DNA of 64,000 bases from Enterobacter phage CC31, in the sequence record NC_014662.1, one strand, 5' to 3'. Position 1 is the stretch's first letter, and each line of letters begins with the position of its first letter. The notes beneath the pieces were generated by a model. It saw only the letters and a program-made list of their open reading frames with translations. It ran no database searches and was not told the DNA's origin. Of this stretch, positions 20,429 to 35,802 are shown piece by piece. The translations under genes were made by a program, and so were the position numbers.

Positions 20429-20818
20429 TTAAAATAGTTTGAAACGTTTTTTCTTTCTCATAATATCGGCATGAGCCTGTTGAATTTGTATTTTAATACA
20501 TTTTTCAACATGTGGTGCAAGGTCGGCTTTTCGTGATTCGTCCAACGTAGAGAACTCTAGTGACACCTGGCCGCTTTCATCCAAGTGTAATGAGGTAACA
20601 TATACGATATGTTCTTCGCCGTCCTCTAGTGTTATCAGGATTTCCTGGACGACATTCTCCATAGCCTTTTGGATTATCTCAAGACTCTTTTTGAACATCC
20701 GTTCGGTTCTTTCAAATTCCCCCTCCGAAGAGGGGGTTTCATCTTGAACTTCAACATCAGTCAAATCGAGGTCTAAGTCCTCGAAATTATTCTTCATCTT
20801 CGTAATTTTCCAGTTCAT
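20429..20818 (-). CDS. hypothetical protein at gene 40 position
   Basis: 129-aa ORF between uvsX and 41; start uncertain (ATG 20818 or 20797). Confidence 0.5.
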   Translation of the reverse strand: MNWKITKMKNNFEDLDLDLTDVEVQDETPSSEGEFERTERMFKKSLEIIQKAMENVVQEILITLEDGEEHIVYVTSLHLDESGQVSLEFSTLDESRKADLAPHVEKCIKIQIQQAHADIMRKKKRFKLF

Positions 20819-21953
20819 CTTCGATTGAAGCTGGAGTTGCTCTTACTTCGCCTTCCGGAGCATGGAATTCTTCGGTCTTCGAATTAATCAGAGCATCAAC
20901 TTCTTCATCTACCACTGCGTTGGTTTCAATAGCACCCAACTGATAGCGGTTCTTAATTGCATCACGGAATGGCTGATGTTTAAACAGAGGACCCCAGAAT
21001 GCGGTGCTTGAAGTATCTTTTGCACGCCATGATTTCTCTTCGCGAACCATTTCACCGGTGTCTACGTCCAGATATTCACGAGCGTACCAGCCATTTTTAG
21101 GTTTAACTACAAAACCAAGTTCCAGCGCCATATCTAACAGACCAGAGTAAGGGTCAATACCACCATCGAATTTAACATCGATGAAGAACTTACTCTTCTC
21201 TTTAACAGTACGAGATTTCTCAGCGTTCAGAACAAACTGATAACCTTGAAGGTCTGTACCATCTTTAATTTGACGTTTACCGATGATGAACACAGTATCT
21301 GCTGAGTACATTGGGCCAGTACCACCAGTCATTACAGTCTTACTGAACATCTCAATTGTTTCGATTGTGTGGTTAACCGCAACGCATGGAATGTTTTTGA
21401 TAGAGAAGTAAGGTGTAACAATACGGAACAGAGACTTCAGTGATTTCGCACGAGTCATATCCGCAACTGATTTTTCGTTCAGAGCATCTTCTGTTTCTTT
21501 CTTAGAAGCCAGGTTACCGATGGAGTCGATGAATACGATAACTTTCTCACCGCGTTCAATTTCTTCCAGCTGATTTACCATGTCAATCTTAAGCTGTTCA
21601 ACAGATTGTACAGGAGTGTGTACTACACGGTCAGGGTCAACACCCATTGCACGAAGATATGCTGGAGTGATACCGAATTCTGAGTCGTAGAATAGACAAA
21701 TAGCATCCGGATATTTTGTCATATAAGCGGAAACCATAGTCAGACTCATATTTGACTTGAAGTGCTTTGACGGACCCGCAAAGATTGTTAAACCTGATTG
21801 CATGCCACCATCTAATGCACCTGAAATCGCGATATTAAGCATCGGAATCTTAGTACGAACTACATCCTTTTCATTGAAGAATTTGGATTTATCCAGAGAT
21901 GCGGTCATTTTAGAAGTGGATGCTTTAATCAGACGAGATTTTAAATCAGACAT
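20787..21953 (-). CDS. uvsX: UvsX recombinase (RecA-like)
   Basis: 388 aa; N-terminus MSDLKSRLIKASTSK and GPSKxFKSN Walker A region match recalled T4 UvsX. Confidence 0.93.
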   Translation of the reverse strand: MSDLKSRLIKASTSKMTASLDKSKFFNEKDVVRTKIPMLNIAISGALDGGMQSGLTIFAGPSKHFKSNMSLTMVSAYMTKYPDAICLFYDSEFGITPAYLRAMGVDPDRVVHTPVQSVEQLKIDMVNQLEEIERGEKVIVFIDSIGNLASKKETEDALNEKSVADMTRAKSLKSLFRIVTPYFSIKNIPCVAVNHTIETIEMFSKTVMTGGTGPMYSADTVFIIGKRQIKDGTDLQGYQFVLNAEKSRTVKEKSKFFIDVKFDGGIDPYSGLLDMALELGFVVKPKNGWYAREYLDVDTGEMVREEKSWRAKDTSSTAFWGPLFKHQPFRDAIKNRYQLGAIETNAVVDEEVDALINSKTEEFHAPEGEVRATPASIEDELENYEDEE

Positions 21954-22032: not shown

Positions 22033-22116
22033 GGATTGCAATGCGGTGAATCATTTTGACAAGGTGTGTAACAACAAGCATTACAATGACCACCGACAAA
22101 GTCGGTGGTGTATTCT

Positions 22117-23193
22117 TTAGATTTCAATTGCTTTTTTGAATTCAGCTTGCCAAATTGGTTTTTCATCAAGATATTTTTGAAGAATTTTGTGCTGATATTC
22201 AAGAGTTTCAATTCTGAAGTCCTCATCGTTTTTAATTTTATTAATTTTATCAACAAGCTCTTGACGATTGCTCACATAGAAGAACTCATTGCCTTCCATG
22301 ATATTCATGTCAGGGTCAAATGTGCTATCGAAGAATGCTACTGCAGTAGATGCCAGAGCTTCCCATACACGTGGAGTGATTTGGTTATTATCGTAAGTCT
22401 TATCACCGAGCACGATAGTAGCATACGCGGTTGAGTTACGCTGAACCATTTCACGAGAATCTACCTTGCCAGGAAATACTGGTGGAGTAGTCCAAGGAAA
22501 TTCTGGGTTCTTGAATTGGTCTGCCTTAACTGAACCGAAGAACTCAACGTCCAGTCCAGTGTCAAACAGATATTCAACCATCTTTTGTTCGCGATTACCA
22601 GAACGGAAAGTTCCACCATAAATCAGGTCACGCATTTTGATGCCATCAGCAGCAATCTTGAAGACGCTGTGATACATCTTATGACGGTCCAGTGCAAAAT
22701 GAACAAATTCCATTCGGTCCTTAGAGACACCAACTAAACGGTCAGAGTGAATTCGTTTAGCTTGTTCCAGGTCACGGCCTTGAGAAATTACACGAATTGG
22801 AGAGCGAACAATGAACTGCTCTTCTGTGTATTTGCTGGACCATTTTTTCTTCGACATTCGACGCCAAGCTTGTTCCCATGGAAGACGAATATCAGTGAAC
22901 AGATAATAAATCTTTGACTTATATTTGTTCAAGAACATATAAGCCGCTTTATTCATCTTGTTCTCTTCACCGCCGTAGAAGTTCAGAGAAGCATTCACTA
23001 CCAGAACTCGGTCATATACATTCGGGTCTGGGACATCATCAAATGCGATGCCATAAATTGTCTGTTTCATTGAAATGAGGTCAACATCAAGCCCCATATC
23101 TTTTAAGCATTCGGACAGATAAATTGTCTCAGAAGCAGGGGTTGTTTTAAACCCCTGGATGTTGTTACCTAAGTTCAGGATAGCAATTTTCAT
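22117..23193 (-). CDS. bgt: DNA beta-glucosyltransferase
   Basis: 358 aa; MKIAILNLGNN, KYKSKIYYLFTDIRLP, GGTFRSGNREQKMVEYLFDTGL match recalled T4 beta-gt. Confidence 0.9.
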   Translation of the reverse strand: MKIAILNLGNNIQGFKTTPASETIYLSECLKDMGLDVDLISMKQTIYGIAFDDVPDPNVYDRVLVVNASLNFYGGEENKMNKAAYMFLNKYKSKIYYLFTDIRLPWEQAWRRMSKKKWSSKYTEEQFIVRSPIRVISQGRDLEQAKRIHSDRLVGVSKDRMEFVHFALDRHKMYHSVFKIAADGIKMRDLIYGGTFRSGNREQKMVEYLFDTGLDVEFFGSVKADQFKNPEFPWTTPPVFPGKVDSREMVQRNSTAYATIVLGDKTYDNNQITPRVWEALASTAVAFFDSTFDPDMNIMEGNEFFYVSNRQELVDKINKIKNDEDFRIETLEYQHKILQKYLDEKPIWQAEFKKAIEI

Positions 23194-24020
23194 AAAGTGG
23201 GCTCAATCTCACTGAATTTGTTGAAAGCGTCTGACTTTTGTTTCTTGGCTACGCACATACGAAGTACTTTCAGAGGTTCGTCAGTGCCAAACATAGTTTT
23301 GGTTGGGTCACCTTCTGATTTCCAACGAGCTTGAGTTGGGAAGTCAGCATGAATTTTTTCTAATGCGCGGTTTTGTTTAGCCGCATTACGCATAGATGAT
23401 ACGCCGCCAGGAGCTTGTCCTTTGCCAGATTTGACGAGATATTTGAAAATCGCCAGATGAGGATAACCCATATTAATGAGTTTAAGGAACGCGTATGTAT
23501 CTTCGGACAGGTCTACTATACCATATCCAATGTCATCAGCAGAAAGTTTGCTTAAATCGTAAAAAGTGTTAGTGAATCCGTAAGAGTTCTCACGGAAATG
23601 ACCCCACTTAGAATCAATCTTGAAGATAGGCAAACGAGCATGACCATGATAAAATCCACAGTCCATAGCTGCTTCAACATACTGAGTGAGTTTATTGAAT
23701 TCGTCCCATGTCATTCCAACATCGTGAAGAATACGACGGTCGTCTTTAGCACGAATCTCAGTAGTATGAATTGTAGTGTCATCGTCCAGCATCCAGATTC
23801 GTTGACCTTGATACATTTCAGTAATAAGACGACGAGTACCAGCAATACCATTTACATCATCTGGAATAGTTACGATTTTAGCCAACGCACCATAATGCAT
23901 CTCATATTCTTCTTTCTGAGACTCACGTACTACTAAATGAGGTACATAACCAGTAGGGAACATGTCCAGGGCAGTTACTGCCCCAGCACGATTGTAACTC
24001 GGAATTACAAATTGAATCAT
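23190..24020 (-). CDS. GT-A-fold glycosyltransferase-like protein (candidate DNA sugar transferase)
   Basis: about 276 aa; N-terminal QFVIPSYNR nucleotide-sugar-binding-like strand and LDDD (DxD) about 70 aa later; ATGA-coupled to gene 42 upstream and beta-gt downstream. Confidence 0.65.
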   Translation of the reverse strand: MIQFVIPSYNRAGAVTALDMFPTGYVPHLVVRESQKEEYEMHYGALAKIVTIPDDVNGIAGTRRLITEMYQGQRIWMLDDDTTIHTTEIRAKDDRRILHDVGMTWDEFNKLTQYVEAAMDCGFYHGHARLPIFKIDSKWGHFRENSYGFTNTFYDLSKLSADDIGYGIVDLSEDTYAFLKLINMGYPHLAIFKYLVKSGKGQAPGGVSSMRNAAKQNRALEKIHADFPTQARWKSEGDPTKTMFGTDEPLKVLRMCVAKKQKSDAFNKFSEIEPTL

Positions 24021-24754
24021 TTCCATTTGCCTTTGTAGTCAGATTTCTTAACATCAATCCGGCCGGTTTGACGATAATAGTCAACCAGATAGAAATGACG
24101 CTCATACACATGCAGAGACCCAGCGTTCCAAATAATGTCACCTGGAACATATTTTTCACCAGAACCTGCATTAACTGTTTCTACTAATGATTCTAATACA
24201 TATTTCTGCCAAGCATAATCATTGCGGAAACCAAATACAACATCATTGCTTCGCATATTAACGATAGCGTTTACACGACCATCACGAATAAGATATTGAA
24301 CTGTGTTAGTGCACATGAAATCACTCATACCATCACGTTCAAAATCAACTTGCATACTCGGACGAGTGTAAATCATAATTGCACGACGAGAATCTGGTTT
24401 TTCAATCAGCTCAGTTGCGCAGAATGAGAATTGATTATAATTTTCAGCAGACCAAATAGCCCAGCCATAGTTTGAGTTAATTTCGCCCTTTGAAGATGAA
24501 ACCTGTTCCCAGATAGCCGGAGTACCGCCTGGAATATCTTTCACGAACAGAGACTTGGATTTGTACCATGCAAGTTCACGTTCAACATATTCTTGGTTAA
24601 CTGTTCCGAAAATTGAATCTTCGGTTACTACAAAAGATGGACCAATTAACTCAATGGTCTTTGCGCCAGTTTTGTCAATTACAAACATTTCATTGAACAG
24701 AGCATGGCACAGTTCATCACGAATGTCTTCGTTAGTCAGTGGAGTTACAATCAT
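24017..24754 (-). CDS. 42: dCMP hydroxymethylase
   Basis: 245 aa from ATG 24752-24754; VIDKTGAKTIELIG, WYKSKSLFVKDIPG, MCTNTVQYLIRD match recalled T4 gp42. Confidence 0.9.
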   Translation of the reverse strand: MIVTPLTNEDIRDELCHALFNEMFVIDKTGAKTIELIGPSFVVTEDSIFGTVNQEYVERELAWYKSKSLFVKDIPGGTPAIWEQVSSSKGEINSNYGWAIWSAENYNQFSFCATELIEKPDSRRAIMIYTRPSMQVDFERDGMSDFMCTNTVQYLIRDGRVNAIVNMRSNDVVFGFRNDYAWQKYVLESLVETVNAGSGEKYVPGDIIWNAGSLHVYERHFYLVDYYRQTGRIDVKKSDYKGKWK

Positions 24755-25191
24755 TTTGCCTCTTCGTAGTTTTTCTTCATACAACGCTTAAATGCTTCAT
24801 ATTGGCCAGAAGACCTGAAGTTTTCAAATGCGTTGATATTTTTGCTGGTAGGATTATTATACATCGTTTGATATAAGCCTGCACCATGGAACTCAACGAT
24901 AGCTTGACACTTACGAGCAGCTACTTGCTTCTCATAGGTTGCGTCAAATTCGCGTTGTTTCTTCATGACACGTGCCTGGTCACGAGCGATAGGGTCATTA
25001 GCCTGCTGTTGAGCAAGATACTCTTCGCCTGCACGAACAGAAGACTGATTGATTTGAGGGGTTGAACGAGCATACACCAAACCGGTGCCGCCTACATACT
25101 TAACTTGCCCTACAGTACTAGCATGAACAGTGTCTCCTTGGTAAGCACAACCTGCCAGTAGCATAGCAGCAGCTACTGCTAAAAATTTCAT
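24751..25191 (-). CDS. putative lipoprotein (at imm position)
   Basis: 146 aa from ATG 25189-25191 (GAGGA RBS); signal MKFLAVAAAMLLAGC with lipobox; ATGA-coupled to gene 42. Confidence 0.55.
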   Translation of the reverse strand: MKFLAVAAAMLLAGCAYQGDTVHASTVGQVKYVGGTGLVYARSTPQINQSSVRAGEEYLAQQQANDPIARDQARVMKKQREFDATYEKQVAARKCQAIVEFHGAGLYQTMYNNPTSKNINAFENFRSSGQYEAFKRCMKKNYEEAK

Positions 25192-25254
25192 TTTCAATAT
25201 CCTCATTTGTGTATAGAAGAATTATACCACATCCGTGTGGTAATTTACAATGCT

Positions 25255-27963
25255 TTAGAAATCAAACATATTGTCTAAAGATGCTTTTTCTTCATAGTCA
25301 AGACCTGAAGCTTCTGACATACCAGCAAGCGGCTTAACGAAAGACTTTTGGAACAGAGTCGTGTAGTCTAACCAAGCCAGAACATCTTGACGAATTTCCT
25401 GTGGAAGTTCTGTACCTGATGGCCAAGCGATACATTTGTCACCGAATGGGTTACCCTGACGAAGTGGAAGAACCATCACCTTGTTACCCTCGAGAATCGG
25501 AGTGACAGAGAATCCGGCTGTTGCACGATTATAAGTCAGTGCACCACGAACGTGATATGGACATTTAAGACCAGGGAAACCATTATCGTCATATTTACCG
25601 ATGTCATTACAAGTTTTAACTTCTGCAATAACTTTGTAGTCCAGCTGACGATATTCTTTTTCAAACTGCTTGTAGTATTCTTGCAGCGATTCTTCACCTT
25701 CTTGAACCATGCGGCGAATACTTTCTTCCAATGCTTTCTGAACCGCTTTCGGAGTAGAAGACTGCTGAGTCTCCATGCCCATAATCTTCAGGTGTGGTTC
25801 AGCATAACGCTTATCTTCCATATCGTAAACGTTCAGTGCATAACGTTTCTTAGCTTTCCAGAATCCACCACAACCTTTTGAACCAAGCGGCGGACATGAA
25901 ATAGCTTCTCGGTCCATATGCATGAGGTGTTCACGGTTATTGAAGTACTCGCACAGTTCACGATAAGCGGTATCAATCATCGGTTCCATTTTCTTCTTAC
26001 CGAATTGGTTCATAAATTCAACCACTTCGTCAGTTGTTTTGAAACGTTCAAGACCTACTTTTTCAATAACTTTGTCAACTGAAACATAGATTGAGTCAGT
26101 ATCACCTGCTGCGATGAAATCAAATCCTTCGGTTCCACACACTTTATTCAGATACTCGTTAACTTTACGAGCAATCCAACGAATACCTACTTGACCAAAC
26201 AGTGTAATCGCAGATGCGTTACGAAGGTCATAATAACGGAAGTAAATGTTACCCAAAGCACCATAAAGACTGTTGATAAGAATCTTACGGTTCAGCTGGT
26301 TTGTGTTTGCCAGAATAGCAGCAGATTCACAACGAGCCAGCATAGTTTCCAGCACCAACTTAGTGTACTTATTTAGAGACGCTTTCTGTTCGTCAGTGTA
26401 CTGAGTGTAACGAGTTTCATCTGGAGTATCAATGTCACCGAATACGCCAGCAGCTAAAACTTTCTTAATTTCTTCTGCGTTACGTTCTTCTGCGAACATC
26501 TTTTTCTTCCAATCTTTACGCTGGAAGAACACCTTAGCGATTTCTACCGGGATGACACCCTCAATATCTTTACGATACATCCAACCGTTCGGTGAACATG
26601 AATATTCGTCACTTGGTCGTGGAGCAGTCTTATTGATATAAGCTTCGATATCATAAAGTTTGAATTGACCAACAATTGTTTCCGGAGAAATATTCACCTG
26701 ACGAATGATACTCGGATACAGAGATGTTAAGTCGAAACTCATGATGTACTTACGAGCACATGCTAATGGTTCAAATACATATGCACCTGGATAAGTCTGC
26801 TTGATGTGACGCTTACCTTGAGGAATTACTTTGTTCTGTTCTTTCAAGGAGTTAAAGATGATTGCGTCCCAAGTTTTAATTGGAGACATTACACCACCGA
26901 ACGGCATCTTAGCATAATAAGACATACTCAGCGCCAGGTCAATGAATCCACGAACTCGGTCAATACCACCCACAGACTCAACGTCCATGATGTTATAAGA
27001 AATATAACGTTGGTGATTTGTTTCACGAAGTTTGTTAATTGGACCGTCATATGGTAACTTACCACGTTTCGTCTCATACAGAGCGATGTAGTCCAAGTTA
27101 TAAGTTGGTTGGTTCGTGAATGAATACTTCTTGTACAAATCCATGTAATCCAGAATTGTTACACCATCAATACTGAATACTTCTTTTTCACCGTACATGT
27201 TCTGAATGAGTTTTGAATTCACTCGGTTAATTGGAGAGAATCGTTTCATTGTACGTTCACCCAACACATTCTTAACACGGTTCATGATGTACGGAATATC
27301 AAAGCCTTCAATGTTCCAGCCTGTGAAAATTGCTGGACGCTTTTGTTCCCAGAGATTGATGTATTCCAGAAGAAGTTCTTTCTCTGAATAGAACGGCATG
27401 TACACTACGCGGTCAAGAATATGCTGCGGAACTTCATCACCGCCTTCCTTATCGCTTCGTGCTGCTAGCTTCACGTCCCATTCTGAAACTGAGCCATACA
27501 GAGAATCCAGTAAGTCGAAAACGTAGAACTTATCATCGATTGAATCATAATGAGTGATTGCATCGATTTCATACATCGCTTTCATTGGGTCTGGGAATTT
27601 ATCACCTGTAACTTCGATGTCACAGTTAGCAACACGAATGAATTTCTTGTCATAAACAATCTCAGAACCATAAGTGTCGGAGATATAAGCAAGTTTGAAG
27701 TCATCCATACCCATGGCTTCAAGACCGATATCTTCCATACGACGAATCCAATCACGAGCATCTTTCATGGTCGGGAAAGTATTCTTGACACATGGCTTCC
27801 CATAGATATCAAAGAACTTTGTCTTCACACCTTGTTGAGCATGAGAAAACATAGTTGGAGAATATTCAATTCGTCGCTGACGTTCTACACCATTAGAGTC
27901 AATATAACGTTCAATGATGTCATTACCTGCGGTTTCAATAGAGATATAAAATTCTTGTGCCAT
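25255..27963 (-). CDS. 43: DNA polymerase (family B, with 3-5 exonuclease)
   Basis: 902 aa; long stretches match recalled T4 gp43 (FDIEV exo I, YGDTDS pol motif C, SLYPSII motif A). Confidence 0.95.
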   Translation of the reverse strand: MAQEFYISIETAGNDIIERYIDSNGVERQRRIEYSPTMFSHAQQGVKTKFFDIYGKPCVKNTFPTMKDARDWIRRMEDIGLEAMGMDDFKLAYISDTYGSEIVYDKKFIRVANCDIEVTGDKFPDPMKAMYEIDAITHYDSIDDKFYVFDLLDSLYGSVSEWDVKLAARSDKEGGDEVPQHILDRVVYMPFYSEKELLLEYINLWEQKRPAIFTGWNIEGFDIPYIMNRVKNVLGERTMKRFSPINRVNSKLIQNMYGEKEVFSIDGVTILDYMDLYKKYSFTNQPTYNLDYIALYETKRGKLPYDGPINKLRETNHQRYISYNIMDVESVGGIDRVRGFIDLALSMSYYAKMPFGGVMSPIKTWDAIIFNSLKEQNKVIPQGKRHIKQTYPGAYVFEPLACARKYIMSFDLTSLYPSIIRQVNISPETIVGQFKLYDIEAYINKTAPRPSDEYSCSPNGWMYRKDIEGVIPVEIAKVFFQRKDWKKKMFAEERNAEEIKKVLAAGVFGDIDTPDETRYTQYTDEQKASLNKYTKLVLETMLARCESAAILANTNQLNRKILINSLYGALGNIYFRYYDLRNASAITLFGQVGIRWIARKVNEYLNKVCGTEGFDFIAAGDTDSIYVSVDKVIEKVGLERFKTTDEVVEFMNQFGKKKMEPMIDTAYRELCEYFNNREHLMHMDREAISCPPLGSKGCGGFWKAKKRYALNVYDMEDKRYAEPHLKIMGMETQQSSTPKAVQKALEESIRRMVQEGEESLQEYYKQFEKEYRQLDYKVIAEVKTCNDIGKYDDNGFPGLKCPYHVRGALTYNRATAGFSVTPILEGNKVMVLPLRQGNPFGDKCIAWPSGTELPQEIRQDVLAWLDYTTLFQKSFVKPLAGMSEASGLDYEEKASLDNMFDF

Positions 27964-31491: not shown

Positions 31492-33176
31492 TCCAGTACC
31501 GTAAAGCGACCAACTTTCTTCATTTGAAGATGTTGACCGTATGCTTGAGGGTCATGGTCACGATGGCTGATGATGAAGATATTTGAATCTTGCATCTTGT
31601 TGAGTATTTGTGTGATAGATTTTACACCATCAACGTCCGTAGCAGAATCGAATACTTCGTCTAAGAACAAACAGTTAATCTTAACACCAGATACTAATTC
31701 AGCTATATCACGCCAAGTGAATAACAGCGCAATATCAATACGTGCCTTTTCACCCTGACTAAAAGAGTTGTAACTAAATTCTTCGCGTCCGCGAGATTTG
31801 ATAGTTTCATTGAACTCTTCGTTCAAAGTAAAGACATAATCAGCATCCATCACTTTCAAATAAGAATTAATTTGCTTATTGAACAACGGAATGTACTTCT
31901 TAATTATTAAGCCTTTAATACCAGAATCCTTGAACATCTCCGTAAGAATACCACGAAGATATTTTTCCATGACTGAATTGGATTTGGTATCAACTATTTT
32001 ATTCAATTCTTCATTAAGCGTTTTGATTTCATCTGAATAATCAATGAACTCTTCAGCTGCTTTATCAATAGCTGCTTTAATCTTGCGAATACGCTCAACA
32101 GCTGCTTTCAACTCTTCAGTTTTGGCTGCTACCTGTCCTCGGATGTCTCTGGCTCGGCGTTTAACCGCTTCATATTCCATCTGGGACGCCTGAAGATTCT
32201 CTAGATGCGTTTTTAACTCAGCATGTTTGATATTACATTCATCAACTTTCGAGTTAATCTGGCCGATTAGAGTGTCACTGGAGTGCAAATCCTGCAAACA
32301 TGTTGGACAATGACCACCTTTATCATACAATGACAGAACTTTTGTGTATGACTCGATGCGGTTCAGGATAGTAATCCCAGCCATTTGAGTCTTTTGAATT
32401 CCTTCAGACACATCGTCTTCTTCACCGATTACGATATTGGCCAGGTTCTTGTTCAACTCATCAATAGCAGAACGAATATTACGAGCATCCGCCATAGACT
32501 CTTCGTACATGTTCTGCCAACGAGCAACGTTTTCACCAGAAAGTTTCTTTTGCTTCTCTATGTTTTCTTCATAGATTTTGATTTGTTGCTGAATTCCGTC
32601 TTTCTTGGCATCTAGAACTTGAACTTGAGAATTCAGTTCTCGAACCAAAGACTTATTCAGTTTATCCATTTCAGCAATGATTGAAACTTCGAGCAGGTCT
32701 TCTACTAACTTTCTTCTAGCGGGTGTACTAAGACCCATAAACGGAGTGTAGCCTGCTGTTCCGAGTACCACGACTTGTTTGAAACTCGTGTATGACATTC
32801 CAATGAGTTCTTCGAAATAACTTTGGAAGTCTTTAACTGAAGCCGCTTCATCAAGCTTAGCACCATCGCGTTCAATTTCAAAGACATTTGGTTTCTGCCC
32901 ACGTTTGATGTAATACGAATGACCATCATATTCCATCCACAATTCACACAGCAATCCTTTCTTGTTTGTGGAATTGATTAATTGGCCTTTCTTGAAATCA
33001 CGGAACGGTTTGCCAAACAATGCGAATGTAATTGCTTCAAGCATTGTACTTTTACCGGCACCATTCTTACCAGTGATTAGTGTTTTGTGGACCTTATCAA
33101 GTTGAATATCAATGGGCTGTCCGCCCACTGACATAATATTCTGATACTTGACTCGGTTCAATTTGAAAATCTTCAT
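31488..33176 (-). CDS. 46: recombination/repair nuclease subunit (SbcC/Rad50-like ATPase)
   Basis: 562 aa; Walker A GKNGAGKST, coiled coil with CPTC hook, C-terminal signature; matches recalled T4 gp46. Confidence 0.92.
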   Translation of the reverse strand: MKIFKLNRVKYQNIMSVGGQPIDIQLDKVHKTLITGKNGAGKSTMLEAITFALFGKPFRDFKKGQLINSTNKKGLLCELWMEYDGHSYYIKRGQKPNVFEIERDGAKLDEAASVKDFQSYFEELIGMSYTSFKQVVVLGTAGYTPFMGLSTPARRKLVEDLLEVSIIAEMDKLNKSLVRELNSQVQVLDAKKDGIQQQIKIYEENIEKQKKLSGENVARWQNMYEESMADARNIRSAIDELNKNLANIVIGEEDDVSEGIQKTQMAGITILNRIESYTKVLSLYDKGGHCPTCLQDLHSSDTLIGQINSKVDECNIKHAELKTHLENLQASQMEYEAVKRRARDIRGQVAAKTEELKAAVERIRKIKAAIDKAAEEFIDYSDEIKTLNEELNKIVDTKSNSVMEKYLRGILTEMFKDSGIKGLIIKKYIPLFNKQINSYLKVMDADYVFTLNEEFNETIKSRGREEFSYNSFSQGEKARIDIALLFTWRDIAELVSGVKINCLFLDEVFDSATDVDGVKSITQILNKMQDSNIFIISHRDHDPQAYGQHLQMKKVGRFTVLE

Positions 33177-34195
33177 TGATTCTGAGCCTCAACATAAAGA
33201 GCTTGTGCAAATTTTTTCAATGCAGCGTTATCAGTTGGAGATAAGTCTTCCAATGCATCAATATATTCTGACATCAAATCTAATAAGCTTTTAACTTCAA
33301 TGTCTTCTTCATCGTCAGATTCAACTGAATTGTCAATCTTAGAAACCATGCGTAGTTCATGAACTACTTTTTCAAGTTCGGTTTCAAACTTAGTGATATC
33401 TTTATCAACATCAGTGACAATTACTCGGACTGAAAGATTTTTGTAGTCGTTGTAATCAATCTTACCAGTGAATGGATATTGAAGTCTTACATGCCAGGTA
33501 GTTTCGTTTGGCACAAAATCCATACTTTCCGTTGCGGTATCGAAAATCCAGAATCCGCGAGGGTCGTTCTCGTCACCTGCTGTAAGGGTCCAGGGAGTGC
33601 CGATATACTTAACATTGGCAGCAGAGGATATAGTATGGAAATGCCCTGACCACACTTGCTTATATGACTTAAGGAAATCTGGCTCGAGACCATGAGATTT
33701 TAAACCTTTGTAGTAATAGAAGCCATTAAGCTCCCAGTGCCCAATACAATACTCTGCAGATGATTCTTTAACATGCTTCATAATAGAAGCTACGTTTTCA
33801 TCGCAAAGCCATGGAATTAGGTCAATTAAGCATCCGTCAAAATCAACAGTAGTAGGCACATCATAAATTTTGATGTGGTCATGTTTGCCTAATACTTCTG
33901 TGATAGCATTGGGATGAATTTTATTCTTATAATGCATGTCGTGGTTTCCGATGATTGTATGCATCGTAATCCCAGCTTCTGCTAGCATATCAGCGATTTC
34001 ACGAGCGAATTCCATCGTCTTGTGAGTGATAGCTTTACGTACGTCAAAAATATCTCCGTACTGAATCCACACAGTAATTCCGTGCTTCTTCGAATACTCA
34101 ATTTTTTGACGAATACCATTACGTTGAATTTCTTGAAGCCAAGGGTCATCACCCTTTACGCCCAGATGCCAGTCACCTGTGTGTAATATTTTCAT
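33173..34195 (-). CDS. 47: recombination/repair nuclease subunit (SbcD/Mre11-like phosphoesterase)
   Basis: 340 aa; MKILHTGDWHLG and GNHD phosphoesterase motifs. Confidence 0.92.
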   Translation of the reverse strand: MKILHTGDWHLGVKGDDPWLQEIQRNGIRQKIEYSKKHGITVWIQYGDIFDVRKAITHKTMEFAREIADMLAEAGITMHTIIGNHDMHYKNKIHPNAITEVLGKHDHIKIYDVPTTVDFDGCLIDLIPWLCDENVASIMKHVKESSAEYCIGHWELNGFYYYKGLKSHGLEPDFLKSYKQVWSGHFHTISSAANVKYIGTPWTLTAGDENDPRGFWIFDTATESMDFVPNETTWHVRLQYPFTGKIDYNDYKNLSVRVIVTDVDKDITKFETELEKVVHELRMVSKIDNSVESDDEEDIEVKSLLDLMSEYIDALEDLSPTDNAALKKFAQALYVEAQNQ

Positions 34196-35057: not shown

Positions 35058-35312
35058 CTACTTACTTTTGTAATCAATTGTTATGCTAAAATCATTTTCT
35101 CCTAGATTATAACTGTGAGTTATCTCAGCATTATCAGAAGTGAATTCAGCGTCATGTGGGTTCTTGGGGTCGATGCGAATGTCCAAATCCAATACCTCCC
35201 TCATATACATTTTAAGCAAATAAGGGATAGCATCATAATCGGGCACTTCTTCCAGGAAACCTGCGAGGTTAATCGTCAGCCTCATATAAAAAATCCAAGT
35301 TCGGACCTTCAT
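35058..35312 (-). CDS. hypothetical protein
   Basis: 84-aa ORF, start uncertain (ATG 35312 or 35285). Confidence 0.45.
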
Positions 35313-35802
35313 CTACAACATCGCTCTTTTTGTCAGACCCTGGCTGTTTGTAGGTGGAGGTTTCGTAATGCGTCATTTTATCGTAGATGTCTTGAATAAA
35401 AGTTTCATCTACTAACGCAACCATATCATCGTCACGAGCGTCATAGACGTTGTGAACAAAATAGCTATACTTTTTAGCAACTTCCTTACGTTCTTTCTTG
35501 ATACGTTGGACGAATGCGTTAAAGCAAGCACGGGTTATATACGCATGCGGGTTGTCGTACTTTGTTTCATCGAAGTTGTGTAGACCTTTAATAGAAGCCT
35601 CTACACCGTCTGAAATCATTTCATCTTTCCAAGAGCGGGTGTACCCCGAAAAGTTAAAACGCTTACTCAGACCCTCAGATATCAACATAATTGCTCTGCC
35701 GATAGTATCATTCTGACGAACGGGTTTACCAGCTTCGCGACATTGCTGTTTCCACTCAGTGATGGCTTTCAGCAACTCCTTATTATTTACATAGTTAGCC
35801 AT
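35269..35802 (-). CDS. 55: late-transcription sigma factor
   Basis: 177 aa; YVNNKELL, [28 protein letters not shown], [30 protein letters not shown] match recalled T4 gp55. Confidence 0.93.

Follow-up and report, generated by a model that had tools for sequence, protein, structure and literature searches.

A 276-aa ORF lies between gene 42 and beta-gt in Enterobacter phage CC31 (NC_014662.1), a T4-like phage of the Karamvirus group, within the 64,000-nucleotide stretch of DNA that was analysed, referred to here as the window. The genes and features at the locus are given below in descending order of coordinate.

25255..27963, minus strand: gp43, called as an ORF.
25221..25250, minus strand: sigma-70-like promoter (TTGTAA, 18 nt, TATAAT, with TG), a match only, at 10/12 consensus positions.
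24751..25206, minus strand: upstream 151-aa ORF, from the ORF call, with a lipoprotein signal, MKFLAVAAAMLLAGC, and a match to PHROG 1754 (unknown function, E 3e-43).
24190..24215, minus strand: MotA-box-like middle promoter (TGCTT...TAGAAT), a consensus match only.
24017..24754, minus strand: gene 42, from the ORF call.
23190..24020, minus strand: TAGT ORF, 276 aa, from the ORF call (278 aa if translation starts at another in-frame ATG, at 24026).
23778..23786, minus strand: codons for D79-D80-D81 (DxD motif), invariant together with T82 in 15/15 aligned homologues.
23499..23504, minus strand: codons for the acidic pair E173-D174, invariant in 15 homologues and located at the start of helix 173-183.
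22117..23193, minus strand: beta-gt, 358 aa, from the ORF call.
22089..22109, no strand assigned: G+C-rich hairpin of 9 pairs, scored on the plus strand, with a palindromic stem.
20787..21953, minus strand: uvsX, from the ORF call.

The preliminary description of this DNA had placed the ORF in a slot that is empty in T4, and had described it as translationally coupled on both sides. Comparison with T4, in which a 23-bp spacer alone separates gene 42 from b-gt, bore out the first point, and both junction sequences agreed with the second. Gene 42 ends ...AAATGGAAATGA, its TGA being shared with the ATG of the TAGT ORF (ATGA overlap), and the TAGT ORF ends ...ACTTTATGA, its TGA being shared in the same manner with the ATG of beta-gt. 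The ORF is presumably co-expressed with the hmC genes. The stop of the 151-aa ORF overlaps the start of gene 42, and this ORF therefore appears to be the first gene in the coupled string; its product is more likely to be 146 aa, with a start at 25191, and is 146 aa in the annotation of Enterobacter phage vB_EhoP_ZX13, a near-identical phage. The sigma-70-like match is positioned immediately 5' of this lipoprotein-like ORF, and the MotA-box-like match falls within gene 42, ∼170 nt 5' of the TAGT start. The latter pattern has 37 matches in the window versus 14.4 expected, and the scan of the TAGT region for promoters and terminators revealed no enrichment versus shuffled sequence. The hairpin, which starts 8 nt past the beta-gt stop and has a weak minus-strand T-run, may represent the 3' end of the transcript.

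Sequence comparison identifies the product of the 276-aa ORF as orthologous to the T2/T6 beta-glucosyl-HMC-alpha-glucosyltransferase, an enzyme that is also known as ba-gt, g-gt, TAGT or glucosyl-DNA beta-glucosyltransferase, and that corresponds to Pfam PF20691. The ORF matched PHROG 842 over its full length (E 1.3e-82, residues 2-274) and is 65% identical to the T2 protein over all 276 aa, with the T2 gene occupying the syntenic site; the suggestion that the protein might be of the T2/T6 type was therefore upheld. The match to the Pfam TAGT family was marginal (28.3 bits, with the cutoff at 27.5) and confined to the N-terminal half. Resemblance to the T2/T6 enzyme extends to length (276 versus 280 aa), to the ATGA-coupled position after gene 42, to the invariant motifs and to the predicted GT-A fold, and TAGT genes are located directly after gene 42 in T2 and Mineola also. 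Annotated orthologues from Karamvirus and genera close to it, in CC31 (YP_004009898.1), PG7 (YP_009005303.1), myPSH1140 (YP_010093939.1), S16 (gp24) and Merlin (gp43) share 93-100% identity and the same 42-TAGT-bgt arrangement, with no substantive difference between them; those of the close relatives PG7 and myPSH1140 are annotated in RefSeq. A dN/dS ratio of 0.04-0.06 versus the S16 and Merlin orthologues, at dS of ∼0.8-0.9, together with homologues in 687 phage records, indicates that the ORF is a real gene under purifying selection.

An AlphaFold (AF2) model of the protein (pLDDT 86, pTM 0.86) returned GT-A/GT2 enzymes only as its top structural matches in the PDB (E ∼1e-6), and the model of a Klebsiella phage protein annotated as beta-glucosyl-HMC-alpha-glucosyl-transferase superposes upon it with a TM score of 0.97. 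The GT-A layout initially proposed from two motifs, a QFVIPSYNR strand (residues 3-11) and LDDD (residues 78-81), was thus supported. Residues D79-D81 follow a predicted strand (74-77) and, by analogy with GT-A enzymes, would bind a metal ion and the diphosphate of the nucleotide sugar. If the enzyme is an inverting GT-A transferase, the E173-D174 pair is a candidate for its catalytic base. A sequence-based profile search of the PDB yielded no solved relative, only chance globin matches (E >0.4), and NCBIfam contained no model matching either the TAGT ORF or beta-gt.

A GT-B paralogue of beta-gt was considered and ruled out by both fold and sequence, since the protein is predicted to be GT-A, the GT-B Pfam families PF09198 and PF11440 are absent from the ORF, and tblastn with T4 a-gt and b-gt left 23190-24020 unmatched. 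The TAGT protein resembles T4 alpha-GT and beta-GT in pathway, presumed UDP-glucose donor and substrate polymer, but the latter enzymes are GT-B proteins of unrelated sequence that target bare hmC rather than a sugar. Other PF20691 TAGTs, and CAZy GT2-type enzymes such as WrtF, RmlT, TarP/TarS and K4CP, have in common with it the GT-A fold, the N-terminal nucleotide-binding strand, the DxD motif and a probable inverting mechanism. However, identity to these proteins is 10-18%, TM scores are ∼0.5 (PDB structures) or ∼0.7 (models of other viral TAGTs), and their acceptors are polysaccharide, teichoic acid or unknown as opposed to DNA-bound glucose.

The gene 42 product matches Pfam Thymidylat_synt and is 68% identical to T4 gp42, compared with 26% to the RB69 5-hydroxy-dCMP synthase (gp48); by sequence it is a T4-type dCMP hydroxymethylase supplying hm-dCMP, and an RB69-like 5-hydroxycytosine/arabinose pathway was ruled out on the same comparison. 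The beta-gt product (Pfam T4-Gluco-transf, E 1.6e-59; PHROG 7922, E 5e-221) is 49% identical to T4 beta-GT and retains the equivalents of E22, D100, R191, R195, R269 and E272, residues that we take to be catalytic on the basis of T4 BGT structures. Its sequence identifies it as a GT-B DNA beta-glucosyltransferase, and as the sole primary hmC glucosyltransferase found. Between gp47 (33173..34195) and gp55 (35269..35802), the canonical alpha-gt site, all ORFs are ≤116 aa, which leaves no room for alpha-gt and agrees with the preliminary description. An alpha-gt elsewhere in the genome was ruled out by tblastn with T4 alpha-gt against the window and the whole 172.9-kb genome of ZX13, where the TAGT ORF recurs with 100% identity; the best match had an E value of 2.2. 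Enterobacter phages were likewise not among the organism names listed for 657 alpha-gt-bearing records. Since alpha-gt is absent, the catalytic residues of beta-gt are kept and gp42 is of the T4 type, the primary glucosylation step must be beta.

The explanation favoured here, to which we assign a probability of roughly 0.6, is that TAGT acts after beta-GT and attaches a second glucose to beta-glucosyl-hmC, a possibility already raised in the preliminary description. In the proposed pathway, gene 42 would supply hm-dCMP, replication would incorporate 5-hmC, and beta-GT, as the only primary transferase present, would attach a beta-linked glucose to hmC. TAGT, probably a metal-dependent inverting transferase with UDP-glucose as its donor, would then couple a second glucose to the first through a beta bond, probably 1->6. 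A diglucosyl hmC of the beta-gentiobiosyl type would result, as opposed to the alpha-gentiobiosyl-hmC of T2/T6. The donor and linkage are predicted from homology alone, and the beta-glucosyl-hmC acceptor and the biological benefit are inferred. The likely benefit would be to shield the DNA from host enzymes by which monoglucosyl-hmC is recognised or stripped; the T6 diglucosyl modification protects against both the Brig1 glycosylase, as seen in vitro, and the glucosyl hydrolase BapA, and this effect is due to its second glucose (PMC11078745; bioRxiv 10.64898/2026.02.25.707755). A comparable principle operates in the RB69, Bas46 and DLP3 arabinosyltransferase systems, in which the sugar that one transferase places on the base is extended into a chain by another, as an escape from host defences (PMC13326640), but with a 5-hydroxy-C base, another sugar and other enzyme folds.

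The proposed order of events departs from that in T2/T6, in which the enzyme acts after alpha-GT and beta-gt is absent; in CC31 the situation is reversed, with beta-gt directly downstream. The genetic evidence on the reaction comes from T6 alone, in which loss of ba-gt leaves alpha-glucosyl-hmC only (PMC11078745; bioRxiv 10.64898/2026.02.25.707755), and that base cannot be formed in CC31, since alpha-gt is missing. The difference is accordingly one of pathway context, not of protein family, and the acceptor anomer must differ from that in T2/T6 if the CC31 TAGT is active. Alpha-glucosyl-hmC is the sole acceptor characterised for the family (PMC13216743; PMC11078745), and the CC31 gene could feasibly be a functionless leftover that still requires it and so has no substrate in a phage with beta-GT only. 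This seems highly improbable given the strong purifying selection described above, the intact state of all of the invariant motifs and the translational coupling on both sides. Nor is the arrangement confined to one group, since the TAGT-beta-GT association has been maintained in at least six lineages, deep ones included. The 42-TAGT-bGT order was found in Gelderlandvirus, Moonvirus, Muldoonvirus and Acinetobacter T4-like phages also, and 58 records in the phage collection carry a TAGT of ≥80% identity, with 58 carrying a beta-gt of ≥80%.

Within the TAGT subfamily to which the ORF belongs (≥48% identity), each neighbourhood or genome examined has either an adjoining beta-GT or a genomic alpha-GT, as would be expected if the acceptor has to be glucosylated beforehand. 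The same observation argues against TAGT being a second primary transferase that acts on bare 5-hmC beside beta-GT, giving two monoglycosyl forms as do alpha-GT and beta-GT in T4. Distant TAGT homologues do occur without alpha-GT or beta-GT in 288 of 753 genomes (PMC13216743), and some must therefore act on targets other than a base glucosylated by these enzymes; moreover the family, as its Pfam name reflects, was defined via association with TET/JBP base hydroxylases. However, genetic evidence assigns addition of the second glucose to enzymes with which the CC31 ORF shares 65-71% identity. In addition, T4 beta-GT by itself glucosylates nearly all hmC (bioRxiv 10.64898/2026.02.25.707755), so that little free acceptor would be left for a second primary enzyme. 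Direct action on hmC is therefore considered quite unlikely.

Addition of the second glucose to a beta-linked first glucose, as favoured here, requires that the enzyme accommodate a different anomer, and the relationships between TAGTs make such tolerance plausible. [quoted passage not shown] Against this, 16 alignment columns set alpha- and beta-associated sequences apart, with positions 136, 191, 222, 226 and 240 of the CC31 protein among the specific residues and the beta set having an invariant D226 (versus A/E) and K/R222 (versus Q), although the alpha set comprises two lineages only and these columns are indistinguishable from phylogenetic signal. The columns make altered specificity possible, and count against the main explanation to that extent. 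TAGT might thus extend the first sugar with another donor, such as a different hexose, or via a beta-1,2, 1,3 or 1,4 bond, in which case the product would not be of the gentiobiosyl type. A beta-linked first glucose does differ geometrically from an alpha-linked one, and sugar-phosphate genes are found near the same cassette in some Acinetobacter phages. However, the N-terminal nucleotide-binding half, DDDT and ED do not vary between alpha- and beta-associated enzymes, no sugar-nucleotide synthesis genes adjoin the cassette in the matching part of the ZX13 annotation, and a change of donor or linkage is judged unlikely.

Both the TAGT gene and its combination with beta-gt are already known. 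The pairing of beta-gt and ba-gt without alpha-gt was recorded for CC31 in 2010 (PMC2993671), the pairing appeared as a table entry for PG7 in 2018 (PMC6024577), and a 2026 survey lists phages with beta-GT and TAGT, describing the function as 'yet to be defined' (PMC13216743). The literature searched yielded nothing on the DNA chemistry of Karamvirus, Gelderlandvirus, Moonvirus, CC31, PG7 or S16, and no chemical or enzymatic work on any phage with beta-GT and TAGT. The CC31 TAGT therefore represents no new gene, being instead a further example of a combination already flagged as uncharacterised (PMC13216743).

Extended to the other groups with this gene order, the proposal would predict that the DNA of Karamvirus, Gelderlandvirus, Moonvirus, Muldoonvirus and Acinetobacter T4-like phages contains an hmC disaccharide with a beta-linked first glucose, made by beta-GT and then TAGT, a generalisation for which we regard the odds as even. 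If correct, beta-gentiobiosyl-type hmC would be a DNA base for which no chemical description was found in the literature, and it would follow either that TAGTs are indifferent to whether the first sugar is alpha- or beta-linked or that some TAGTs form a beta-specific subtype. Which host defences can attack the DNA of T-even-type phages depends on the kind of sugar carried by hmC and on its length. Karamviruses are under development for phage therapy targeting the Enterobacter cloacae complex, and the chemistry of their DNA therefore bears on host range and resistance.

The 276-aa ORF lies on the minus strand between gene 42, encoding dCMP hydroxymethylase, and beta-gt, in the following order.

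25255..27963 (-), DNA polymerase gp43
24751..25206 (-), 151-aa ORF upstream of gene 42
24017..24754 (-), gene 42
23190..24020 (-), 276-aa ORF; 278 aa if started from an in-frame upstream ATG at 24026
22117..23193 (-), beta-gt, 358 aa
20787..21953 (-), uvsX

The junction sequences bear out the position and the overlaps claimed in the preliminary description: gene 42 ends in AAATGGAAATGA, its TGA being overlapped by the ATG of the ORF, which in turn ends in ACTTTATGA, with the beta-gt ATG overlapping its TGA. Since the stop of the 151-aa ORF overlaps the gene 42 start likewise, the four genes form a single coupled string. The QFVIPSYNR and LDDD motifs were located at residues 3-11 and 78-81, respectively, and T4 lacks a gene in this slot, the distance from gene 42 to b-gt there being only 23 bp. 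The 3.3-kb region shares 95-98% identity with that of Enterobacter phages EnC07, vB_Ent31, myPSH1140, PG7 and other members of the genus Karamvirus (Straboviridae, Tevenvirinae), and Enterobacter phage vB_EhoP_ZX13 encodes a protein 100% identical to the ORF product.

Other features of the region were also observed. The ORF at 24751-25206 (-; 146/151 aa), ATGA-coupled to gene 42, carries a lipoprotein signal (MKFLAVAAAMLLAGC), occupies the T4 imm/imm.1 position, belongs to PHROG 1754 (function unknown) and is preceded by a sigma-70-like site (25250-25221). In most close relatives an extra insertion of ~230 bp separates gp43 from this ORF; it is absent from the window, and in ZX13 it encodes a 74-aa ORF. 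A MotA-box-like middle-promoter match (TGCTTGGCAGAAATATGTATTAGAAT) is present at 24190-24215 (-), within gene 42 and ~170 nt upstream of the 276-aa ORF start, the pattern being enriched window-wide (37 matches, 14.4 expected). At 22089-22109, a hairpin with a perfect G+C-rich stem of 9 bp (ACCACCGAC AAA GTCGGTGGT), beginning 8 nt past the beta-gt stop and before uvsX, may be a transcript end or processing signal.

Profile searches and structure prediction assigned the ORF product to the TAGT/GT-A glycosyltransferases. It matches PHROG 842, 'beta-glucosyl-HMC-alpha-glucosyltransferase', over its full length (E 1.3e-82), and Pfam TAGT (PF20691, TET-associated glycosyltransferase) over residues 5-122, at 28.3 bits barely exceeding the 27.5-bit cutoff; tblastn yielded 687 phage records with a homologue. 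Its counterpart in phage T2, which shares 65% identity over 276 residues, directly follows gene 42 and overlaps it by four bases in the same way. An AlphaFold2 model built with 12 homologues as input (mean pLDDT 86, pTM 0.86) has best PDB matches that are all of GT-A/GT2 type (E ~1e-6, TM ~0.5), namely WrtF fucosyltransferase, RmlT, chondroitin polymerase K4CP, KfiA and TarP/TarS. Among viral models, superposition on the Klebsiella phage PKO111 'beta-glucosyl-HMC-alpha-glucosyl-transferase' gave TM 0.97, as against ~0.7 for other TAGT-domain proteins. D79-D80-D81-T82 and E173-D174 are invariant in 15 homologues with identities down to 48%. Taken together, these matches and motifs show that the GT-A/DxD reading is correct and that the gene is of the T2/T6 type, raised initially only as a hedge.

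The enzymes of the first modification step were examined also. The beta-gt product is 49% identical to T4 beta-GT and retains equivalents of E22, D100, R191, R195, R269 and E272, whose roles in T4 BGT are known from crystal structures. The gene 42 product shares 68% identity with T4 dCMP hydroxymethylase and only 26% with the RB69 homologue, which makes 5-hydroxy-dCMP (PMC13326640); the decorated base should therefore be 5-hydroxymethylcytosine (hmC). A T4 alpha-gt query gave no match in the window or in the full 172.9-kb ZX13 genome (best E 2.2). The canonical alpha-gt site between gp47 (33173..34195) and gp55 (35269..35802) is indeed vacant, holding only ORFs of up to 116 aa and thus no space for a 400-aa alpha-gt, and Enterobacter phages are not among the organism names listed for 657 alpha-gt-carrying records. 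Judged by its gene content, the phage is a beta-GT plus TAGT phage without alpha-GT.

In T6, deletion of the orthologue leaves alpha-glucosyl-hmC only in the DNA, showing that the second glucose of gentiobiosyl-hmC, joined by a beta-1,6 linkage, is added by this enzyme (PMC11078745; bioRxiv 10.64898/2026.02.25.707755). In the present phage the first sugar would be a beta-linked glucose put on by beta-GT, the sole candidate, and we therefore infer beta-glucosyl-hmC to be extended by the TAGT with a second glucose; the donor, acceptor and linkage of the enzyme are all inferred. Several observations support an enzyme that is probably active in a beta-GT setting. The dN/dS of the ORF is 0.04-0.06 against its S16 and Merlin orthologues (dS ~0.8-0.9), and in the phage collection TAGT and beta-gt at ≥80% identity each occur in 58 records. 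The 42-TAGT-bGT order recurs in Gelderlandvirus S16, Moonvirus Merlin, Muldoonvirus-type and Acinetobacter T4-like phages, and in an 85%-identity metagenomic lineage. Moreover, each subfamily member whose neighbourhood or genome was examined adjoins a beta-GT or shares its genome with an alpha-GT, which fits a need for a glucosylated acceptor. The odds that the phage makes diglucosyl-hmC with a beta-linked first glucose are put at about even.

Neighbour joining of 15 TAGTs placed the beta-associated proteins in a paraphyletic group, and the alpha-associated Jiaodavirus TAGT is 71% identical to the present protein versus 64% to its alpha-associated T2 counterpart. Such a pattern suggests a swap of the primary transferase with retention of the TAGT, which would argue for an enzyme that tolerates either anomer of the first sugar or adapts easily to either. 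Sixteen alignment columns split the alpha- from the beta-associated TAGTs (e.g. D226 versus A/E, and K/R222 versus Q), a pattern that is indistinguishable from phylogenetic signal because the alpha set comprises only two lineages.

Related loci show further variation. Between Karamvirus (window 22117-24754) and Salmonella phage S16 (L010, Gelderlandvirus), TAGT, beta-gt and gp42 are 95%, 90% and 72% identical, with dS of 0.87, 1.11 and 1.46; the TAGT/beta-gt pair looks to be either a module recently exchanged between genera or much more constrained than gp42. Muldoonvirus-type loci (Cronobacter phage VP8, L009 2025-2951; L016 2014-2955) have an extra ORF of ~310 aa between gene 42 and TAGT, assigned to PHROG 3891 (function unknown) and without a Pfam match, possibly an additional DNA-modification gene. 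In Acinetobacter T4-like contigs (L012/L013 7825-8813) a cupin/glucose-6-phosphate-isomerase-like gene and a phosphomannomutase-like gene lie two genes downstream of the 42-TAGT-bGT cassette, a hint that the sugar donor is provided or modified by the phages themselves. [quoted passage not shown]

The sequence observation is confirmed and its initial interpretation supported. Neither the gene nor the gene combination is new, both having been described and annotated before. Earlier sources include Petrov et al. and a table listing b-gt and ba-gt (TAGT) homologues in PG7, CC31, S16, STML-198, Moon, Merlin and PS2, with PG7 identities of 49% and 65% that match the present figures (Thomas et al. 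2018; PMC6024577). PG7, myPSH1140, Pet-CM3-4 and others already have the gene named in their RefSeq annotation. A survey of the three transferases across phage genomes lists beta-GT (358 aa) and TAGT (276-278 aa) in PG7, CC31 and myPSH1140, models the T6 TAGT with a GT-A fold that is sister to GT2, presents a TAGT tree coloured by alpha/beta association and calls the function 'yet-to-be defined' (Ramirez-Chamorro et al. 2026; PMC13216743). No nucleoside analysis of any beta-GT plus TAGT phage was found in the literature. The residual value of the finding lies in a specific prediction, namely that the DNA would carry diglucosyl-hmC in which the first glucose is beta-linked.
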